Assembly: GCA_020627685.1 (NCBI GenBank)
Contig: JAHDGK010000007.1
Span: forward strand, 27,612-91,611
DNA: 64,000 nt
From: Granulosicoccus sp.
GTDB taxonomy: Bacteria > Pseudomonadota > Gammaproteobacteria > Granulosicoccales > Granulosicoccaceae
Direction of reading: 5' to 3'
This document shows, piece by piece, positions 33,066 through 42,174 of the stretch. The notes under the pieces are model-generated. The model did not search any database. It saw only the letters and a program-made list of their open reading frames with translations, and had not been told where the DNA came from. Position numbers and translations under genes: made by a program. Position 1 is the first letter of the stretch, and every line of letters begins with the position of its first letter.

Positions 33066-33974
33066 TTAAAACGTGTCTGAATCGGCAACGACTAGTGAAT
33101 CCATTTCGTTATAGAACGCATCCAGATCTTCGGCTTCGCCGTAGCGTGGGACGCTATGCATTCGAGTGTAGGGGCGTGAGTTAACTTCCAGGAAAATACA
33201 ACCCTGTTTGCGATAGTCTGTCTCAATACCTTTCTCAAAGATGACATCGATGCCGAACAGTTTGGCATCGAATGCTTTGATCACTTTTAGGAAAAGTTCT
33301 CTGTTGGCAGCGGGGATCGTGGTCTGATCAATTATTTCAACAACACCGCCTGGAGCGAGGGCGACACGGTTAAATGTGTAGATTCTTTCACCGGCGGCTG
33401 GAACACTTTCAAGTGTTAAACCTTGCTTGGCCAAGTAATCGATAGTTTGTTGGGATTGAGCAATCGGGTAGATTGTCGGAAATAAGCCCATTGATTCGCG
33501 GATAGTATTCTCAGCCTGTATCAGGGAGGCGATGGAGTCTTTGCCGTTTCCATCTACAAACGGCGGGTAGCGACGTATTACTGAGACAAGTTCATCAGGT
33601 GTTGCCAATACACGATAGTTCGCGCCAAGCAGATACTGCTCAACGATGCTGCTAGGCCACCAGACTTTGACCCAGAGTGCTGCTTTCCAGAGTTCCCGGT
33701 AGTTGCGAATGGGGAAGTGGCTGCCTCGCGAGAATCCGCTGACATTCGGCTTAATGCAAAGAGGGAAGCCATGTTCCTTGGCAAACTTGTGTGCAGTCCA
33801 CGGGTTGATGAACAACGTGCCCTTTGCATGCGGAATATCATGCTTGGCGAACATTTCGCGAGCTTGACGCTTCGAACGACTCGCTTTGCGAACCTGCAGA
33901 GAATTGTAATTGCTGCAGCCAGCCATGTACTTCTGGCTGACCCATTTGTAGACGAGCGTTTTAATGGATTTCAC
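33066..33974 (-). CDS. Stand-alone ATP-grasp ligase, cyanophycin-synthetase/GshF-like
   Basis: GFPLCIKPNVSGFSRG, IVEQYL.G.NYRV, P.VDGNGKDSI.SLI..EN, FGIDVI and LEVNSRP motifs; lacks the Mur-ligase half of true CphA. Confidence 0.8.
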   Translation of the reverse strand: MKSIKTLVYKWVSQKYMAGCSNYNSLQVRKASRSKRQAREMFAKHDIPHAKGTLFINPWTAHKFAKEHGFPLCIKPNVSGFSRGSHFPIRNYRELWKAALWVKVWWPSSIVEQYLLGANYRVLATPDELVSVIRRYPPFVDGNGKDSIASLIQAENTIRESMGLFPTIYPIAQSQQTIDYLAKQGLTLESVPAAGERIYTFNRVALAPGGVVEIIDQTTIPAANRELFLKVIKAFDAKLFGIDVIFEKGIETDYRKQGCIFLEVNSRPYTRMHSVPRYGEAEDLDAFYNEMDSLVVADSDTF

Positions 33975-35034: not shown

Positions 35035-35592
35035 TTATGGAGCGCTGATGGTCAGCTCTCCACCGGTTTGTTTGAGCTCAAAATATCGAAGAAAGCTCAT
35101 TCCGAGTAGGGCTACATCACCATTCATGCCCGGATTGACATGCGCCGGCACGTTTTTCATCGTGAATGGTCCGATTGAGACCTCATCGAGCTCTGTTGCA
35201 TAAACAGTGACTTCTCCATTGGCTGTTTGAACCGGATAGCTTCGGCCCCGAGTCAAGTTAAGTCTGTCTGCAACAAGTATCGGAATGCTGATCTGTGATG
35301 CGCCGGTGTCCACGAGAAATTCAACCGGCTCACCGTTGGCGCTACCAGCAAGTGCATACTGGCCGTATCGATCGGATTTCAAAACGAGCTCTGGCGTTCC
35401 ATCAGCCGAGGTATTCCAATAAGGTTTGGACGCATTCGAGCGAGCAGTGAGCCATTGGTTAGCCAATAAACTCCCGCCCAGAAGCAACATTAGCCAGAGC
35501 AGGGCGATCATCCAACCCCCGATTGCACCGGCTGCATCTGGCGGTAGCTGCTCCGGATCGTCGTCTGAATTATTTTGGGGCGTGTTTTCCAT
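35035..35592 (-). CDS. Clan AA retropepsin-like aspartic protease with N-terminal TM segment
   Basis: FLVDTGAS catalytic motif, V.TANG and ALLGMSFL. Confidence 0.9.
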   Translation of the reverse strand: MENTPQNNSDDDPEQLPPDAAGAIGGWMIALLWLMLLLGGSLLANQWLTARSNASKPYWNTSADGTPELVLKSDRYGQYALAGSANGEPVEFLVDTGASQISIPILVADRLNLTRGRSYPVQTANGEVTVYATELDEVSIGPFTMKNVPAHVNPGMNGDVALLGMSFLRYFELKQTGGELTISAP

Positions 35593-35914
35593 AATTTTTT
35601 GACAATATTTGCAGGCTTTTCGGTCGGTTAACGTTAATAGGTCGATATACCTGCGGAATAAGCCTTGCTATATGACATGACCATCCCAAAATTGGGTAGA
35701 ATTGCGGGTTTACTGCGTCAGGCACCTAGTTTGGTCCGTTTCACGGTGAAGGTGGTTCCTTAATCCGGCTCTTGCAAGTTTAGCTTGGGTACAAAATGAG
35801 GAGCGGCTCTTCCCAAAGATCGGGTCAGAGGGGTGCTTTGTCCGTTTTTCAGCAAGGCAACGTCCGGATAACCGCATATTACCGGGCCTTTTTTCCCAGA
35901 GCGTGAGCATCAAG

Positions 35915-37999
35915 ATGACTGACCTTTCCAACTACCGCAACATCGGCATATTTGCCCACGTTGATGCGGGCAAGACCACAACCACAGAGCGTATTCTCAA
36001 GCTCACGGGCAAAATTCATAAAACCGGTGAAGTTCACGATGGTGAAGCTACCACCGATTTCATGGATCAGGAACAAGAACGAGGCATAACCATCCAGTCG
36101 GCTGCGACCAGCTGTGAGTGGGACGGCCATCGCTTCAACATCATCGATACACCGGGACACGTTGACTTCACTATCGAAGTTTACCGTTCTTTGAAAGTAC
36201 TCGACGGCGGCGTCGGTGTTTTCTGTGGTTCGGGTGGTGTAGAGCCTCAATCAGAAACAAACTGGCGTTACGCCAACGAGTCTGAAGTTGCTCGTTGTAT
36301 TTTCGTCAACAAGCTGGATCGTATGGGCGCTGATTTCTATCGCGTTGTCGGCCAGATTAAAGACGTTCTTGCTGCTCGCCCATTAGTTATGACTCTGCCA
36401 ATCGGTACAGAAGATGATTTCACAGGCGTTGTCGATGTCCTGACTCAAAAAGCATGGATCTGGGATAACTCAGGTGATCCGGCTGCATACACTCTGTCTG
36501 ACATTCCAGAAGACATGGTTGAAATTGCGGCTAAGTACCGTGAAGAGCTGGTTGAAAGCGCACTTGAAATGGACGATGACGCCATGGAGCGTTATTTTGA
36601 AGGTGAAGAGCCAGATATCGAAACACTGCAAAAGTGCATTCGTAAAGGCACCATCGATCTAGTCTGGTTCCCGACTTTCTGTGGTTCAGCGTTCAAGAAC
36701 AAAGGCATCCAGCCTATGCTGGACGGCGTGGTTTCTTACTTGCCCAGCCCGACTGAAGTTAAGCCACAGCCGGAAGTTGATCTTGAAGGTAACGAGACGG
36801 GTGAATTCGCCATCGTTGATGCGAGCCGTCCTTTACGTGCGCTTGCATTCAAGATCATGGACGACCGTTACGGTGCGTTGACGTTTATCCGCATTTACTC
36901 CGGAAAAATTGCAAAAGGCGACACCGTTATGAATACGTTTACCGGTAAAACGGAGCGTATTGGTCGGATCGTGGAAATGCATGCTGACTCTCGTGAAGAG
37001 CTCGATTCTGCTCAAGCCGGTGACATCGTTGCCGTACTGGGTATGAAAAATGTTCAGACAGGGCATACGCTTGCTGATGCTAAGAACCCTGCGACTCTGG
37101 AACCTATGGTATTCCCGGATCCGGTTATCTCTATCTCTGTGTCTCCAATCGACAAAGCAGGTACCGAAAAGCTTGGCGTTGCTATCGGTAAGATGGTTGC
37201 AGAAGATCCGTCCTTCCGCGTTATGACTGATGAAGAAAGTGGCGAAACCATTCTTATGGGAATGGGCGAGCTGCACTTGGACATCAAGATCGACATTCTG
37301 AAGCGTACTCACGGTGTAGAAGTTGAAGTGGGTAAGCCTCAGGTGGCGTATCGCGAAACAATCACTCAGCCTATCGAAGATACCTACACTCACAAGAAGC
37401 AGTCAGGTGGTTCCGGTCAATACGGTCGTATCGACTACACTATCGAGCCTGCAGATCCGGGTACAGGGTTTGAATTCGAATCGAAGGTTACTGGTGGTAA
37501 CGTTCCTCGCGAATACTGGCCTGCTGTTGAAAAGGGCTTCAAGATGTCTATGGAAGAAGGCGTTCTTGCCGGCTATCCATTACTCGACTTCCGCGTTGTT
37601 CTGAATGACGGTGCGTTCCACGCAGTTGACTCCAGCGCTCTGGCGTTTGAAATTGCTGCAAAGGGTGCTTACCGTCAGTCAATTCCAAAAGCGGGTCCTC
37701 AGATCATTGAACCTGTCATGAAGGTTGATGTGTTTACACCTGATGATCACGTCGGTGATGTTATCGGTGACTTGAACCGTCGTCGTGGCATGATCAAGTC
37801 GCAGGAGCCAGGTGCTACTGGTGTACGCATCAAGGCAGACGTACCGTTGTCAGAAATGTTTGGTTACATCGGTGACCTACGCACGATGACATCCGGTCGT
37901 GGTCAGTTCTCAATGGAATTCAGTCACTACAGTCAGTGTCCGAAGAACGTTGCAGACGTTGTAATCAAAGAAGCCCAAGAGCGTAAAGCTGCTAAGTAA
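35915..37999 (+). CDS. fusA: Elongation factor G, stand-alone copy outside the str operon
   Basis: [37 protein letters not shown] and GGSGQYG motifs; no rpsL/rpsG/tuf neighbours. Confidence 0.93.
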
Positions 38000-38018
38000 T
38001 TCCGCTTAAAGGTCATTG

Positions 38019-38049
38019 AAAAAAGGCGCTCACTGAGCGCCTTTTTTTT
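38019..38049 (+). terminator. Bidirectional intrinsic terminator after fusA
   Basis: AAAAAAGGCGCTCA-C-TGAGCGCCTTTTTTTT. Confidence 0.88.
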
Positions 38050-38163
38050 GTCTGAAATATCACTTCAAAAAGTCTTGATTCGCGGGTATAAAAAAACCGC
38101 TACAGCTCAAATGAACGGTAGCGGTAAGGGGTCGGGGTCATTACTGATTGGTTTTTTTAACCC

Positions 38164-39804
38164 CTAGTCACGCCGTGTTACAACCACCTCCGGTGCGAGA
38201 ATGCCGGTTCCCATTAAGCTGGGGTTCTGCCATGTGTTGTCACTGCCAGAAGGAGAGAACCAGGCCCACTTTGCATCCCGTACTCCGGAATCGTCATCAT
38301 CGTTGTATTGAACATCGATTCCAAAACGCTCTCCGACGCCTAAGCCGACAGATGCTAAGTTAATTCTTATTTCGTAATAAGTGCTGTGGTTCCAGTCCGT
38401 TGCCATCCCACGGCTGGAGCAGTAGTTGGAGATCATTCCGGGTGCGGAGTTTGAACCGTCAACTTGTGCGTCATCAGCATCGTCCTGGTATCGGAATAAT
38501 CGTTGGAAATCATCCAAGCCGTAGTTGATCTGTTTGTCGTCCCCGATATCCAAAAAGACTTCCACGCTGTCGTCATGCCAGATGTCTGTGGAGTCGCTCC
38601 AACGCTGTGCTGGCTGCTCACGGCCGATTTTCACGAGAATGTATAAATACTCTCCGTCGTGCATTGCTCGCCAGTAGCTGTAGTCGCGGTTACTCTGATC
38701 GGTCAGAATGTCGTAAGGGTCATCAATCAGATGGTCGATGCCTAAATAATTACCTCGGCTATCAGAGCGCGCAGCTGCCTGCCATTCCCACCAGCCAAAG
38801 GCCCCGTCAATGACAGGTGCGTTGGAGGTGAAGGGAATACCGACAACAGAGTTGTCCTGATCATCGGGAATGCCATTGTTGTCATCATCCGGGTCAGCAT
38901 TATCGCCGATTCCGTCACCGTCATTGTCGTTGTGTTCGGTCGGGTCATAGATGAAGGCATCATCGCGATCCGGGTAACCGTCACCATCGGTGTCTTCGTT
39001 GCCGGTGATATTTGGATTTGATGGCTGGGGGTCTTCCAAATCGATGGTGCCATCGCCGTCATCATCATCGTCGACGCTGTTGCCCAGGCCGTCTAAATCA
39101 AGATCCAGGCTCTCGTTCGGGTCTAGCGGAAACCTGTCGTCAACATCCAGAATAGAGTCGTTGTCATCGTCTCGATCTTCATTGTCTCCAAGGCCATCGC
39201 CATCGGTATCTCTGAACTCGTTAGGGTTGAGAGGGAATGCATCGATAGCGTCACGAACACCATCGTTGTCATCGTCACTGTCTGAATCGTTGGCTAAACC
39301 ATCACCATCAAAATCTTCACTCACCGAGTTTGGCGAAGTACCTCTTTCCAGCTCAGCTATGTTGGTAAATCCATCGCTGTCAGAATCAAAGTTGGTATCG
39401 AAGAGTTGTGGCGGAATAGCAAACGTTAACTCTGCCGCATCGGTCTGAACACTGGATTGAGCTGACGCCAGTATCAGAGTGTCTGATGCGCGTTGGACGC
39501 GAAGAAAAAGCGGATAGTTGCGGTTGCTTGGCAGGGCGATACTCGCTGAATACTCTCCATCGGCACCGTCCATGGTGACGCTATCACCGCCGGCGGTCAC
39601 GATTACCTCAATAGCGTCTGTGATGTTCTGCATGCGACTGGGTAGGCTGACTCGGAGCCGTACGTCAGACATCACAGTTATCGCTCCATCATCTGCCCTT
39701 GGTGCGGCAGCACTACTTCCTCCACCGCCGCAAGCTGTGAGCATTAGGGTGCTGGCTACGACTAGCGCGCAGCTGGTCAAGGGAAATTGTTTGAGTCGCT
39801 TCAT
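38164..39804 (-). CDS. Lipoprotein with thrombospondin-type-3-like Ca-binding repeats and a C-terminal CBM9/DOMON-like sugar-binding domain
   Basis: Start at MKRLKQF with lipobox LTAC; many DxDxDG..D..D.FP repeats; C-terminal PVIDG...W, AMHDGEYLY, DDSVEVFLD, YYEIRI and GIDVQYNDDD motifs. Confidence 0.8.
   Translation of the reverse strand: MKRLKQFPLTSCALVVASTLMLTACGGGGSSAAAPRADDGAITVMSDVRLRVSLPSRMQNITDAIEVIVTAGGDSVTMDGADGEYSASIALPSNRNYPLFLRVQRASDTLILASAQSSVQTDAAELTFAIPPQLFDTNFDSDSDGFTNIAELERGTSPNSVSEDFDGDGLANDSDSDDDNDGVRDAIDAFPLNPNEFRDTDGDGLGDNEDRDDDNDSILDVDDRFPLDPNESLDLDLDGLGNSVDDDDDGDGTIDLEDPQPSNPNITGNEDTDGDGYPDRDDAFIYDPTEHNDNDGDGIGDNADPDDDNNGIPDDQDNSVVGIPFTSNAPVIDGAFGWWEWQAAARSDSRGNYLGIDHLIDDPYDILTDQSNRDYSYWRAMHDGEYLYILVKIGREQPAQRWSDSTDIWHDDSVEVFLDIGDDKQINYGLDDFQRLFRYQDDADDAQVDGSNSAPGMISNYCSSRGMATDWNHSTYYEIRINLASVGLGVGERFGIDVQYNDDDDSGVRDAKWAWFSPSGSDNTWQNPSLMGTGILAPEVVVTRRD
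38850..39395 (-). repeat. Asp-rich coding repeats (TSP3-like)
   Basis: Repeated DTDGDG/DDDNDG...DAFP units in the translation; boundaries approximate. Confidence 0.8.
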
Positions 39805-39912
39805 CGTAAAACCATCCAATTGGCAATGCTTCATTTGCCAACTAGTTTGGTGATATATGCACATCCCTGCGCTTTAAAGAGACCGCTTTGATTCGGTAAA
39901 AAGACCGGAGGC

Positions 39913-40962
39913 TTATATTTCTATGAGCTCTGCTTTAAGTGCTTTTGCAACGGCATGCATTCTGTTTGCAGCATCCAGCTTTTTGGTCGCATTGCGCAAA
40001 TGATAAATAATGGTGCTTTCGCTGATACCCAGTATTTGGCTCATTTCCCAGGAAGTTTTGCCTTTGGCTGCCCATTGCAGACAGTCTCTTTCACGCGTGC
40101 TGACAACGCTGTCAGTGCCAGGCAGCATTGTTTTAGTTATGTCTCTAACGCTGTTACGAGTTTCGACCGTGGGCACCAGTAGTTTTGAATCGCTCTCTTT
40201 AGAGGGAGCCAGGCGAACCCCGTTTATTTGATTAATCAGGCGGGTGGCGGCGAATTTACCCAACGCTGCCAGTGGTAAATAGATGGTGCTAAGACCCGGT
40301 GTGCTCTGGCTCGCCGCGTCTATATCGCCACAACCCAGAATAGATACATCGTTAGGCACTCTTATGCTTTGTTCTTTGCAGGCTGCCATTGCACCCAAAG
40401 CCATGATGTCGTGATGAAAAAACACGGCCGTGGGTTGGATTTTTTTAGATAGCAAAATGCGCATAGCATGTGCGCCGCCTTTAAATGAAAAGGGGGCTTC
40501 GATAGTTTCAAGGCTGACGTTTCGCCAAAGCGGTTTATCGGTTTGTTTAAGAAAGCCTTCAGTGCGGTGCTGTGTGCTGAACCGATGCTGAGGTCCGGTC
40601 ACCACAGCAATTTGTCGATGGCCCTGGCTAATAAGGTGTTCGGCTGCAATGCTGCCGACGTGTACATTGTGCAGGTTTGCTAAAACCACATGCTGACGGG
40701 TGCTCATCAGTCGAGCCAGCGAATCATTATCGAGGTATTCGGACGTCATGAGCAGGCCGTCGCAATCGCTCCGGCTCAACGTTTCCCAGGCGTAGCGTTC
40801 TTCAGACTCAGACGTACCCGAGGATACAACCAGGGTGGAGAATCCGTGTGACTCGCAAGTGCGTACCGCCGCGTCTACCATGGCGGCATGGTTAGCATCT
40901 CCGAGAACTTCGGCCATGATGCCGATTCGTCTTCGATGTAGTGGAACGGTCAGACTATCCAT
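39913..40962 (-). CDS. Chimeric regulator: LacI/GalR-type ligand-binding domain + C-terminal LuxR-type HTH
   Basis: LacI core motifs (HLISQGHRQIAVVTGP, RTEGF, PTAVF..HDIMALGAM, VPNDVSILGCGD, PGLSTI) with no N-terminal LacI HTH; ends with RERDCLQWAAKGKTSWEMSQILGISESTIIYHLRNATKKLDAANRMHAVAKAL. Confidence 0.85.
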   Translation of the reverse strand: MDSLTVPLHRRRIGIMAEVLGDANHAAMVDAAVRTCESHGFSTLVVSSGTSESEERYAWETLSRSDCDGLLMTSEYLDNDSLARLMSTRQHVVLANLHNVHVGSIAAEHLISQGHRQIAVVTGPQHRFSTQHRTEGFLKQTDKPLWRNVSLETIEAPFSFKGGAHAMRILLSKKIQPTAVFFHHDIMALGAMAACKEQSIRVPNDVSILGCGDIDAASQSTPGLSTIYLPLAALGKFAATRLINQINGVRLAPSKESDSKLLVPTVETRNSVRDITKTMLPGTDSVVSTRERDCLQWAAKGKTSWEMSQILGISESTIIYHLRNATKKLDAANRMHAVAKALKAELIEI

Positions 40963-41178
40963 TTTAACGTGGGCTTCCTGCTTAGCGAACTTGTCTAATT
41001 GGATTAAATATCGATCAATATCTGGACTATTGACACCTAGTGTTTTGGTTAAAAATCGAGCTTCATATTAAGCATACGGGCGAAAGCATAAAATTTTTTT
41101 CATTTTTTAGGCTCCGACACACTGTCAGCATGCAAATGCTGCCGTCTGGACGTGTAGGATAACGTCTTTGTATACCAT

Positions 41179-42174
41179 TTGACTGCATCCATGCTCGACT
41201 CGACACAAAACGATACGTTAGTTAGTGCCCCTATGCCCGATACGACTGTGTCGGTGAGAGAAACATTTGGCCTCGATGTAGATCTGCAAGTACCCGCATA
41301 CTCAGTCCGGACTGATCGGGTGCCAGATATCGATCCCTCCTACCTGTTTGATTTTCGCACCACGATGGCCATTCTTGCAGGCTTCTCGAACGATTGGCGT
41401 GTGCTTATTTCCGGGTTTCACGGTACGGGAAAATCGACGCATATCGAACAAGTCGCAGCTCGTCTCAACTGGCCGTGTTTACGCATAAATTTGGATAGCC
41501 ATGTCAGCCGAATCGATTTAATCGGTAAAGATGCCATCGTATTGAAAGAGGGGAAACAAGTTACCGAATTTCAGGACGGCATTCTTCCCTGGGCCTATCA
41601 ACGAAACGTCGCACTGGTTTTCGATGAATATGATGCGGGCCGCCCAGACGTCATGTTTGTTATCCAGCGAGTCTTGGAAAGTGCTGGACAGCTGACATTG
41701 CTGGACCAAAGTCGTGTTATCAAGCCTCATCCTGCGTTCCGTTTTTTCGCAACTGCCAATACTGTTGGTTTGGGCGACACGACGGGTCTCTACCATGGCA
41801 CGCAGCAGATCAACCAGGCGCAGATGGATCGTTGGTCAATCACGACCATTCTGAATTACCTGCCAGCCGAGCAAGAGTGCAAAGTAGTTTTGGCGAAAGC
41901 GCCTCACTTACAAAACCCGGAAGGGGAGAAGCTGGTTGCGCAAATGGTCTCATTGGCTGGCCTTACGCGAAACGCATTCCGCAATGGCGACCTGGCAACT
42001 GTGATGAGTCCTCGAACGGTTATTACCTGGACGCAGAACATAACGTTCTTTAAAGATGTCGGCTTGGCGTTTGAACTCGTCTTCGTTAACAAGTGTGATC
42101 CTGCTGAACGAGCGCTCATTGCCGAGTTGTATCAGCGTGTATTCGGTGAGGAGCTGAAGGACATTGACGGCTGA
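41179..42174 (+). CDS. cobS: CobS-type AAA+ ATPase (cobaltochelatase CobS family)
   Basis: [50 protein letters not shown] and MSPRTVITW motifs. Start codon uncertain. Confidence 0.92.

Follow-up and report, generated by a model that had tools for sequence, protein, structure and literature searches.

A LacI-type sensor core without the LacI HTH is joined to the DNA-binding tail of a quorum-sensing (QS) LuxR protein in a real, conserved gene of Granulosicoccus sp., located in the 64,000-nucleotide stretch of DNA analyzed here (the window). The family of fusion proteins to which its product belongs is rare, has been found so far only in Granulosicoccus/Granulosicoccaceae, and is apparently uncharacterized. 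We consider it likely that the regulator is a cytoplasmic one-component transcription factor, a member of a Granulosicoccus-restricted family of single fusion origin, which would act as a ligand-modulated dimer of the LuxR type.

Domain architecture and ligand pocket

The regulator gene begins with an ATG codon, and its parts are as follows.

39913..40962, minus strand: regulator gene, 349 residues, LacI-type effector core with a C-terminal LuxR/GerE HTH (ORF, Pfam, NCBIfam)
40135..40938, minus strand: PBP type-I core (LacI/PurR/RbsR-like), residues 9–276 (PurR alignment, PDB sequence matches, AF2 model)
40672..40677, minus strand: codons 96–97, flanking a 12-residue deletion relative to canonical LacI cores and subfamily B, between VVLAN and LHN (gap in the PurR alignment, family alignment)
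40108..40134, minus strand: inter-domain linker, residues 277–285, predicted to be flexible (low pLDDT, family variation)
39943..40107, minus strand: four-helix LuxR/GerE HTH of the QS LuxR type, residues 286–340 (GerE match, HTH tree)

The Pfam matches are Peripla_BP_3 at residues 107–271 (E 1e-31), Peripla_BP_1 at residues 26–252 (E 3e-13) and GerE (PF00196) at residues 286–340 (E 1.8e-16), all of them strong and not due to chance. Residues 9–276 align with PurR positions 58–335 (NCBIfam), and the regulator thus begins right after the HTH and hinge helix of the LacI family. The sequence-only reading had placed LacI/GalR effector motifs at residues about 10–275, in agreement with the Peripla_BP matches and this alignment. 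It had also described the N-terminal LacI HTH as absent and an upstream stop as lying within about 35 codons; no Pfam match to PF00356 (LacI HTH) was found in the ORF or in the extended stop-to-stop frame, which comprises 384 residues and is 35 codons longer than the ORF. The reading frame is free of internal stops, and the regulator has no Pfam match to the autoinducer-binding domain (PF03472) or to an AraC-family domain.

PDB sequence matches of the core were PurR (4e-30) and RbsR, both at about 26–28% identity, and the core is likely the sensor and dimerization module. The AlphaFold2 model, computed with the family alignment as input (pLDDT 91.2, pTM 0.76), has an alternating beta-alpha pattern that forms a two-lobed PBP core followed by four C-terminal helices, those of the HTH, at residues 289–343. 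In this model, pLDDT falls below 50 at linker residues 280–283, and the linker varies in both length and sequence in the alignment of the fusion family. Foldseek matched the model to the cores of RbsR, PurR and LacI (TMq 0.62–0.66), and no solved structure spanning both domains was among its matches. The predicted model thereby indicates that the two-lobed fold of the core is intact.

The fusion family forms a single clade in a tree of the cores (SH-aLRT 92), and canonical GalR/GalS/RbsR-like LacI proteins are its sister group. Within the family there are two subfamilies, A (support 100), to which the window protein belongs, and B (support 97). Members of subfamily B have the canonical LacI features, namely the Tyr/Phe pair, N-D, GYDD/GFDG, and the strand-loop-strand "NR...CVxxDN". 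In PurR structures, R190, D275 and Y73/F74 are ligand-pocket residues. Subfamily A has the 12-residue deletion at the strand-loop-strand region, as seen in both the PurR and the family alignments; the equivalent of D275 is replaced by Gly (GFDD to GCGD; G212 in the window protein), and the equivalents of Y73/F74 are Ser/Asn-Leu, with N24/H25 at these positions in the window protein. The equivalent of R190 is retained as R127, and other pocket-lining positions are also conserved within the subfamily. The loss of the conserved Asp and of the Tyr/Phe pair, together with the deletion, makes ligand binding by subfamily A uncertain; either a changed ligand or lost ligand binding is possible. Since the pocket is remodeled, a ligand need not be a sugar, and with this deletion and these lost residues the sugar, one of the ligands that the sequence-only reading had suggested, is an assumption.

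The core of subfamily A might therefore bind no small molecule and be a mere dimerization scaffold for the LuxR HTH, in which case the regulator would be constitutive, or set by its expression level or by a partner protein. The core deletion, the missing Asp and aromatics, and a long stem branch to subfamily A in the core tree (0.85) are all in its favor. We nevertheless regard such a scaffold as rather unlikely. The core has a dN/dS of 0.13 in comparison with a 96%-identical ortholog, is confidently predicted to fold as an open two-lobed PBP, and conserves R127 and the other pocket-lining positions, and a remodeled pocket is as consistent with a change of ligand as with its loss. For the whole regulator dN/dS is 0.10 against the same ortholog, and the HTH has no non-synonymous changes at all (dN/dS 0). 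These ratios indicate that the fusion is under purifying selection.

The DNA-binding domain and its quorum-sensing context

Residues 271–344 of the regulator align with autoinducer-type LuxRs (the PA1136 family, SdiA, RhlR and CviR), and the HTH is 55–70% identical to those of autoinducer-binding LuxRs. A C-terminus of LuxR type had been claimed from the sequence, and with this alignment and the GerE match the description of the protein as a domain swap proved correct in each detail that was checked. E291, G301, H321, R323, N324 and K328 are invariant across the fusion family and L295 is nearly so; E291, L295 and G301 are the E-x3-L-x5-G triad of QS LuxRs. In an HTH tree the fusion HTHs cluster together inside the Autoind_bind LuxRs, a placement favored by the selection of the QS sequences for similarity to the query, and with an SH-aLRT of 95 they separate from the remaining GerE domains that the same genome encodes. 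The phylogeny against QS LuxRs that had been suggested along with the earlier reading thus sets the fusion HTHs among Autoind_bind proteins. As to a donor of the HTH, the nearest QS LuxRs (P0092 and P0096) do not come from Granulosicoccus loci.

The core tree and the HTH tree both fit a fusion that took place once, ahead of the diversification of the genus. A LacI-family ancestor resembling GalR, RbsR or PurR would have lost its N-terminal HTH and hinge and, in one event, acquired at its C-terminus a linker and a DNA-binding domain derived from a LuxR of the autoinducer type.

In the host genome, which is 99.5% complete, there is a single true Autoind_bind + GerE protein, an AHL-type LuxR solo of 276 residues (G000 contig C21, L004 871–1701). 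The HTH of this solo is 59% identical to that of the fusion, and the two have the H, R, N and K of the recognition helix (H-x-R-N-x3-K) in common. Since the DNA-contacting residues match, the two proteins may recognize similar boxes. No luxI was found in the host genome; the same search found luxI in 6 of 25 genomes of the genus, which makes the negative result meaningful. As to the term "LuxR-solo-like" that had been applied to the regulator, a protein lacking the autoinducer-binding domain is formally no LuxR solo.

One alternative, then, is that the fusion mainly interferes with QS LuxRs and gates the AHL response by a metabolite, either by occupying lux-type boxes or through mixed dimers formed via the common DNA-binding domain. 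The similarity of the two HTHs, with the same recognition-helix residues, and a host that carries a LuxR solo and no luxI, in a genus where luxI is present in 6 of 25 genomes, are compatible with it. Against this, the presence of the fusion does not track that of luxI across the genus, no lux-type box was found, and the argument is purely inferential; we consider interference very improbable. The palindromes that precede luxI in two genomes of the genus yielded no box that could be transferred to the fusion loci. Control of a LuxR-type regulon, as envisaged in the sequence-only reading, or of a QS regulon was not borne out by any operator or target.

Distribution and genomic locus

About 70 clusters of proteins with the Peripla_BP + GerE architecture, at 33–99% identity, were retrieved in a search of 5.8 billion proteins, and all named members are from Granulosicoccus. 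When phmmer was run exhaustively against 1.84 billion representative proteins, no more than 22 clusters fell below 1e-30, and about 20 of these are fusions over their full length. Matches at E <= 1e-25 occur in 22 of 37 Granulosicoccus genomes, most of them covering both domains and with up to five fusion copies per genome; 24 genomes of the class that belong to other families have none. When one genome was scanned for each of 185,579 species, full-length matches came solely from Granulosicoccus/Granulosicoccaceae, and matches outside the Granulosicoccaceae were confined to the last 60–90 residues of the regulator. No other match reached the HTH in a profile search of 400 Pseudomonadota genomes drawn evenly. 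Full-length matches come from isolates (e.g., strain 3-233) as well as MAGs, and the complete 7.78-Mb genome of G. antarcticus carries the fusion architecture.

That the fusion is an assembly chimera, a prospect raised with the sequence-only reading, or a frameshift artifact or a decaying pseudogene, has a negligible probability and we take it to be excluded by the presence of the architecture in about 70 clusters from independent assemblies (G. antarcticus and isolate 3-233 included), the synteny of the locus in at least nine genomes, isolates among them, the dN/dS of 0.10, the stop-free frame and the model pLDDT of 91. The other prospect raised there, that the architecture is common and already characterized, does not agree with the rarity of the family, and no description of a LacI core with a LuxR HTH was found in literature searches. 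A census of LuxR proteins in Actinobacteria mentions no LacI, periplasmic-binding or sugar-binding partner domain.

Some unusual arrangements were observed in these searches. At one locus (L040, G028:C3, 7802–12842) three subfamily-B regulators stand in tandem, and in front of both the second and the third lies a duplicated piece from the 3' end of the ubiD-like gene upstream; this looks like a recent segmental tandem amplification. In a metagenomic family member of 654 residues (P0121) a truncated core precedes a full core and GerE; the protein is a fusion with tandem cores or else the product of two gene calls that were merged. Two giant proteins, P0142 (3836 residues) and P0195 (2854 residues), are arrays of LuxR-type HTH domains and match the query HTH in 9 and 12 separate stretches, respectively.

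In at least nine genomes including isolates, orthologs at 48–96% identity lie at the same place, with cobS-cobT on one side and an EF-G gene on the other, and the regulator is divergent from cobS at all orthologous loci examined. The EF-G paralog (window 35903–37999, plus strand) and a retropepsin-like aspartyl protease gene (window 35035–35592, minus strand) flank the regulator locus, and with a RimK-like ATP-grasp gene (33066–33974) they form a block that is syntenic across the genus. The features adjoining the regulator are listed below.

40963..41178, no strand assigned: divergent intergenic region between the regulator and cobS-cobT, holding the regulator's own promoter (conserved arrangement)
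39869..39906, minus strand: element GGTyTTwTTACCG-N8-CGGTswCTTTAAwGCGC, between the regulator stop and the CBM9 gene (conservation across loci)
39816..39845, minus strand: inverted repeat TTGGCAA-N8-TTGCCAA, 12 nt upstream of the likely lipoprotein start
38164..39864, minus strand: lipoprotein gene on the same strand as the regulator, with TSP3-like Ca-binding repeats and CBM9 (CBM9_1 9e-26 and a weak TSP_3 match, Pfam)

The slot just downstream of the regulator varies among orthologs; it holds a CBM9 lipoprotein, an FG-GAP protein or a CMD protein, or nothing, and FG-GAP and CMD genes in this slot lie on the strand opposite to the regulator. The CBM9 lipoprotein gene, which stands there in the window and in three other lineages, is a candidate target of the regulator. 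Its true start is likely the ATG at 39804. The product carries the signal LTAC, many Asp-rich TSP3-like repeats and, at its C-terminal end, CBM9; it is probably a surface glycan-binding protein.

The element of about 38 bp at 39869–39906 is conserved in the window and at loci L095, L098 and L104, where the regulators are just 50–57% identical, and this conservation makes it, tentatively, the best candidate promoter or operator. Its ACCG-N8-CGGT core was considered as an operator and rejected, as it is not enriched genome-wide (79 found vs 68 expected). The TTGGCAA-N8-TTGCCAA repeat is present in the window and in the 96% relative only, being absent from L098 and L104, and might be a hairpin or an operator.

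On the cobS side, CGTGTAGGATAAC occurs at window 41151–41163 (plus strand), some 30 nt ahead of cobS. As an exact 13-mer it is found once per genome at the cobS locus, only in genomes with a regulator ortholog, with one extra copy elsewhere in genome G002. The core of the motif, GTGTAGGAT, is conserved in front of cobS in most of the genus, genomes without the regulator among them, and for this reason CGTGTAGGATAAC was ruled out as the operator of the regulator; it is probably a promoter element of cobS, resembling a -10 box. An apparent GRCGT-N8-ACGYC dyad at this motif is not consistently compensated. The 8-mer TGTAGGAT, which we take to be common to the cobS motif and the lux box of V. fischeri, is treated as a coincidental likeness.

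No dyad common to the divergent regions corresponding to 40963..41178 was found, nor were palindromes shared up- or downstream of 30 non-redundant family loci beyond the cobS motif. A search of 37900–41400 with Rfam gave nothing in the regulator gene or in the intergenic regions on either side of it; the four matches obtained, weak and below threshold, all fell at 37975–38083. Neighborhoods of the paralogs are heterogeneous (with, among others, an MFS_2 sugar transporter, an EndoU-like secreted protein, an aldehyde dehydrogenase, a TPP enzyme, and the housekeeping genes dnaN-recF-gyrB) and gave no clue to the ligand.

Proposed mechanism and comparison with known systems

We infer that the core dimerizes and binds a small molecule, these being the sensing steps of the mechanism that we favor for the ligand-modulated regulator. 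The two C-terminal HTHs would exit the same pole of the dimer, that of the C-subdomain, which in LacI carries the C-terminal oligomerization helix. They would then pair on a dyad of roughly 16–20 bp in the fashion of TraR and LuxR, and binding of the ligand would alter DNA binding or activation. By analogy with proteins of the LuxR type, the regulator is more likely an activator than a repressor. Allostery in LacI runs via the N-subdomains, whereas the DNA-binding domain of the regulator hangs from the C-subdomain. No ligand, operator or regulon was identified from the sequence, the dyad search over 30 family loci or the gene neighborhoods, and the variable downstream neighbor among orthologs is counted against the mechanism.

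The closest analogue is XylR of E. coli, to which the regulator is comparable without being a member of the same family. [quoted passage not shown] In XylR the DNA-binding domain contacts the sensor domain of the partner, and the ligand rearranges the dimer (PMC3561964). [quoted passage not shown] Unlike XylR, with its double AraC HTH, the regulator has a single LuxR/GerE HTH, and there is no sequence relationship between the two beyond the common fold. The antiparallel dimer and helix-to-strand switch of XylR are accordingly not to be assumed.

With QS LuxRs (LuxR, TraR, RhlR, SdiA and CviR) the regulator shares a homologous C-terminal linker and four-helix HTH, the conserved E/L/G triad and recognition-helix residues and, probably, by analogy, binding as a dimer to dyad boxes; unlike them, it has a LacI-type PBP sensor in place of PF03472. 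The effector core is homologous to that of the LacI/GalR repressors (PurR, RbsR, GalR/GalS and CytR), but these carry an N-terminal HTH and hinge helix that the regulator lacks, DNA binding is moved to the opposite pole, and subfamily A differs further in its 12-residue deletion and altered pocket. Exchange of the signal-binding domain for one that detects another chemical cue, with the LuxR HTH kept, is also seen in PluR and PauR of Photorhabdus, PAS4-LuxR solos which show that a LuxR HTH can be linked anew to a different kind of sensor (PMC4235431). These solos sense through PAS4 and not through a PBP/LacI core, and their lineage and origin are different.

In summary, what is new is a genus-restricted family that combines a LacI core with a LuxR HTH; domain-shuffled one-component regulators and the XylR precedent were known already. 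Domain shuffling in regulators is well known, so no general principle is changed. The family is a natural case of modular rewiring in one-component regulators, with a LacI-type sensor placed on a QS-type LuxR output at the opposite pole. After XylR, it offers a second independent test case of a PBP-fold sensor that controls a C-terminal DNA-binding domain, and the fusion could serve as a scaffold for biosensor design.

Granulosicoccus is a seaweed-associated genus and a dominant kelp epibiont, and the fusion may be one of the means by which it senses the surface of its host. A more speculative proposal, which we think improbable, is that the fusion, in a kelp-surface bacterium without an AHL synthase, reads a host or community metabolite through its remodeled pocket and acts on the lux-type boxes of the resident LuxR solo. 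If this were true, the metabolic cue and the quorum signals on which the bacterium eavesdrops would act on one regulon, such as that of surface glycan-binding proteins like the adjacent CBM9 lipoprotein.
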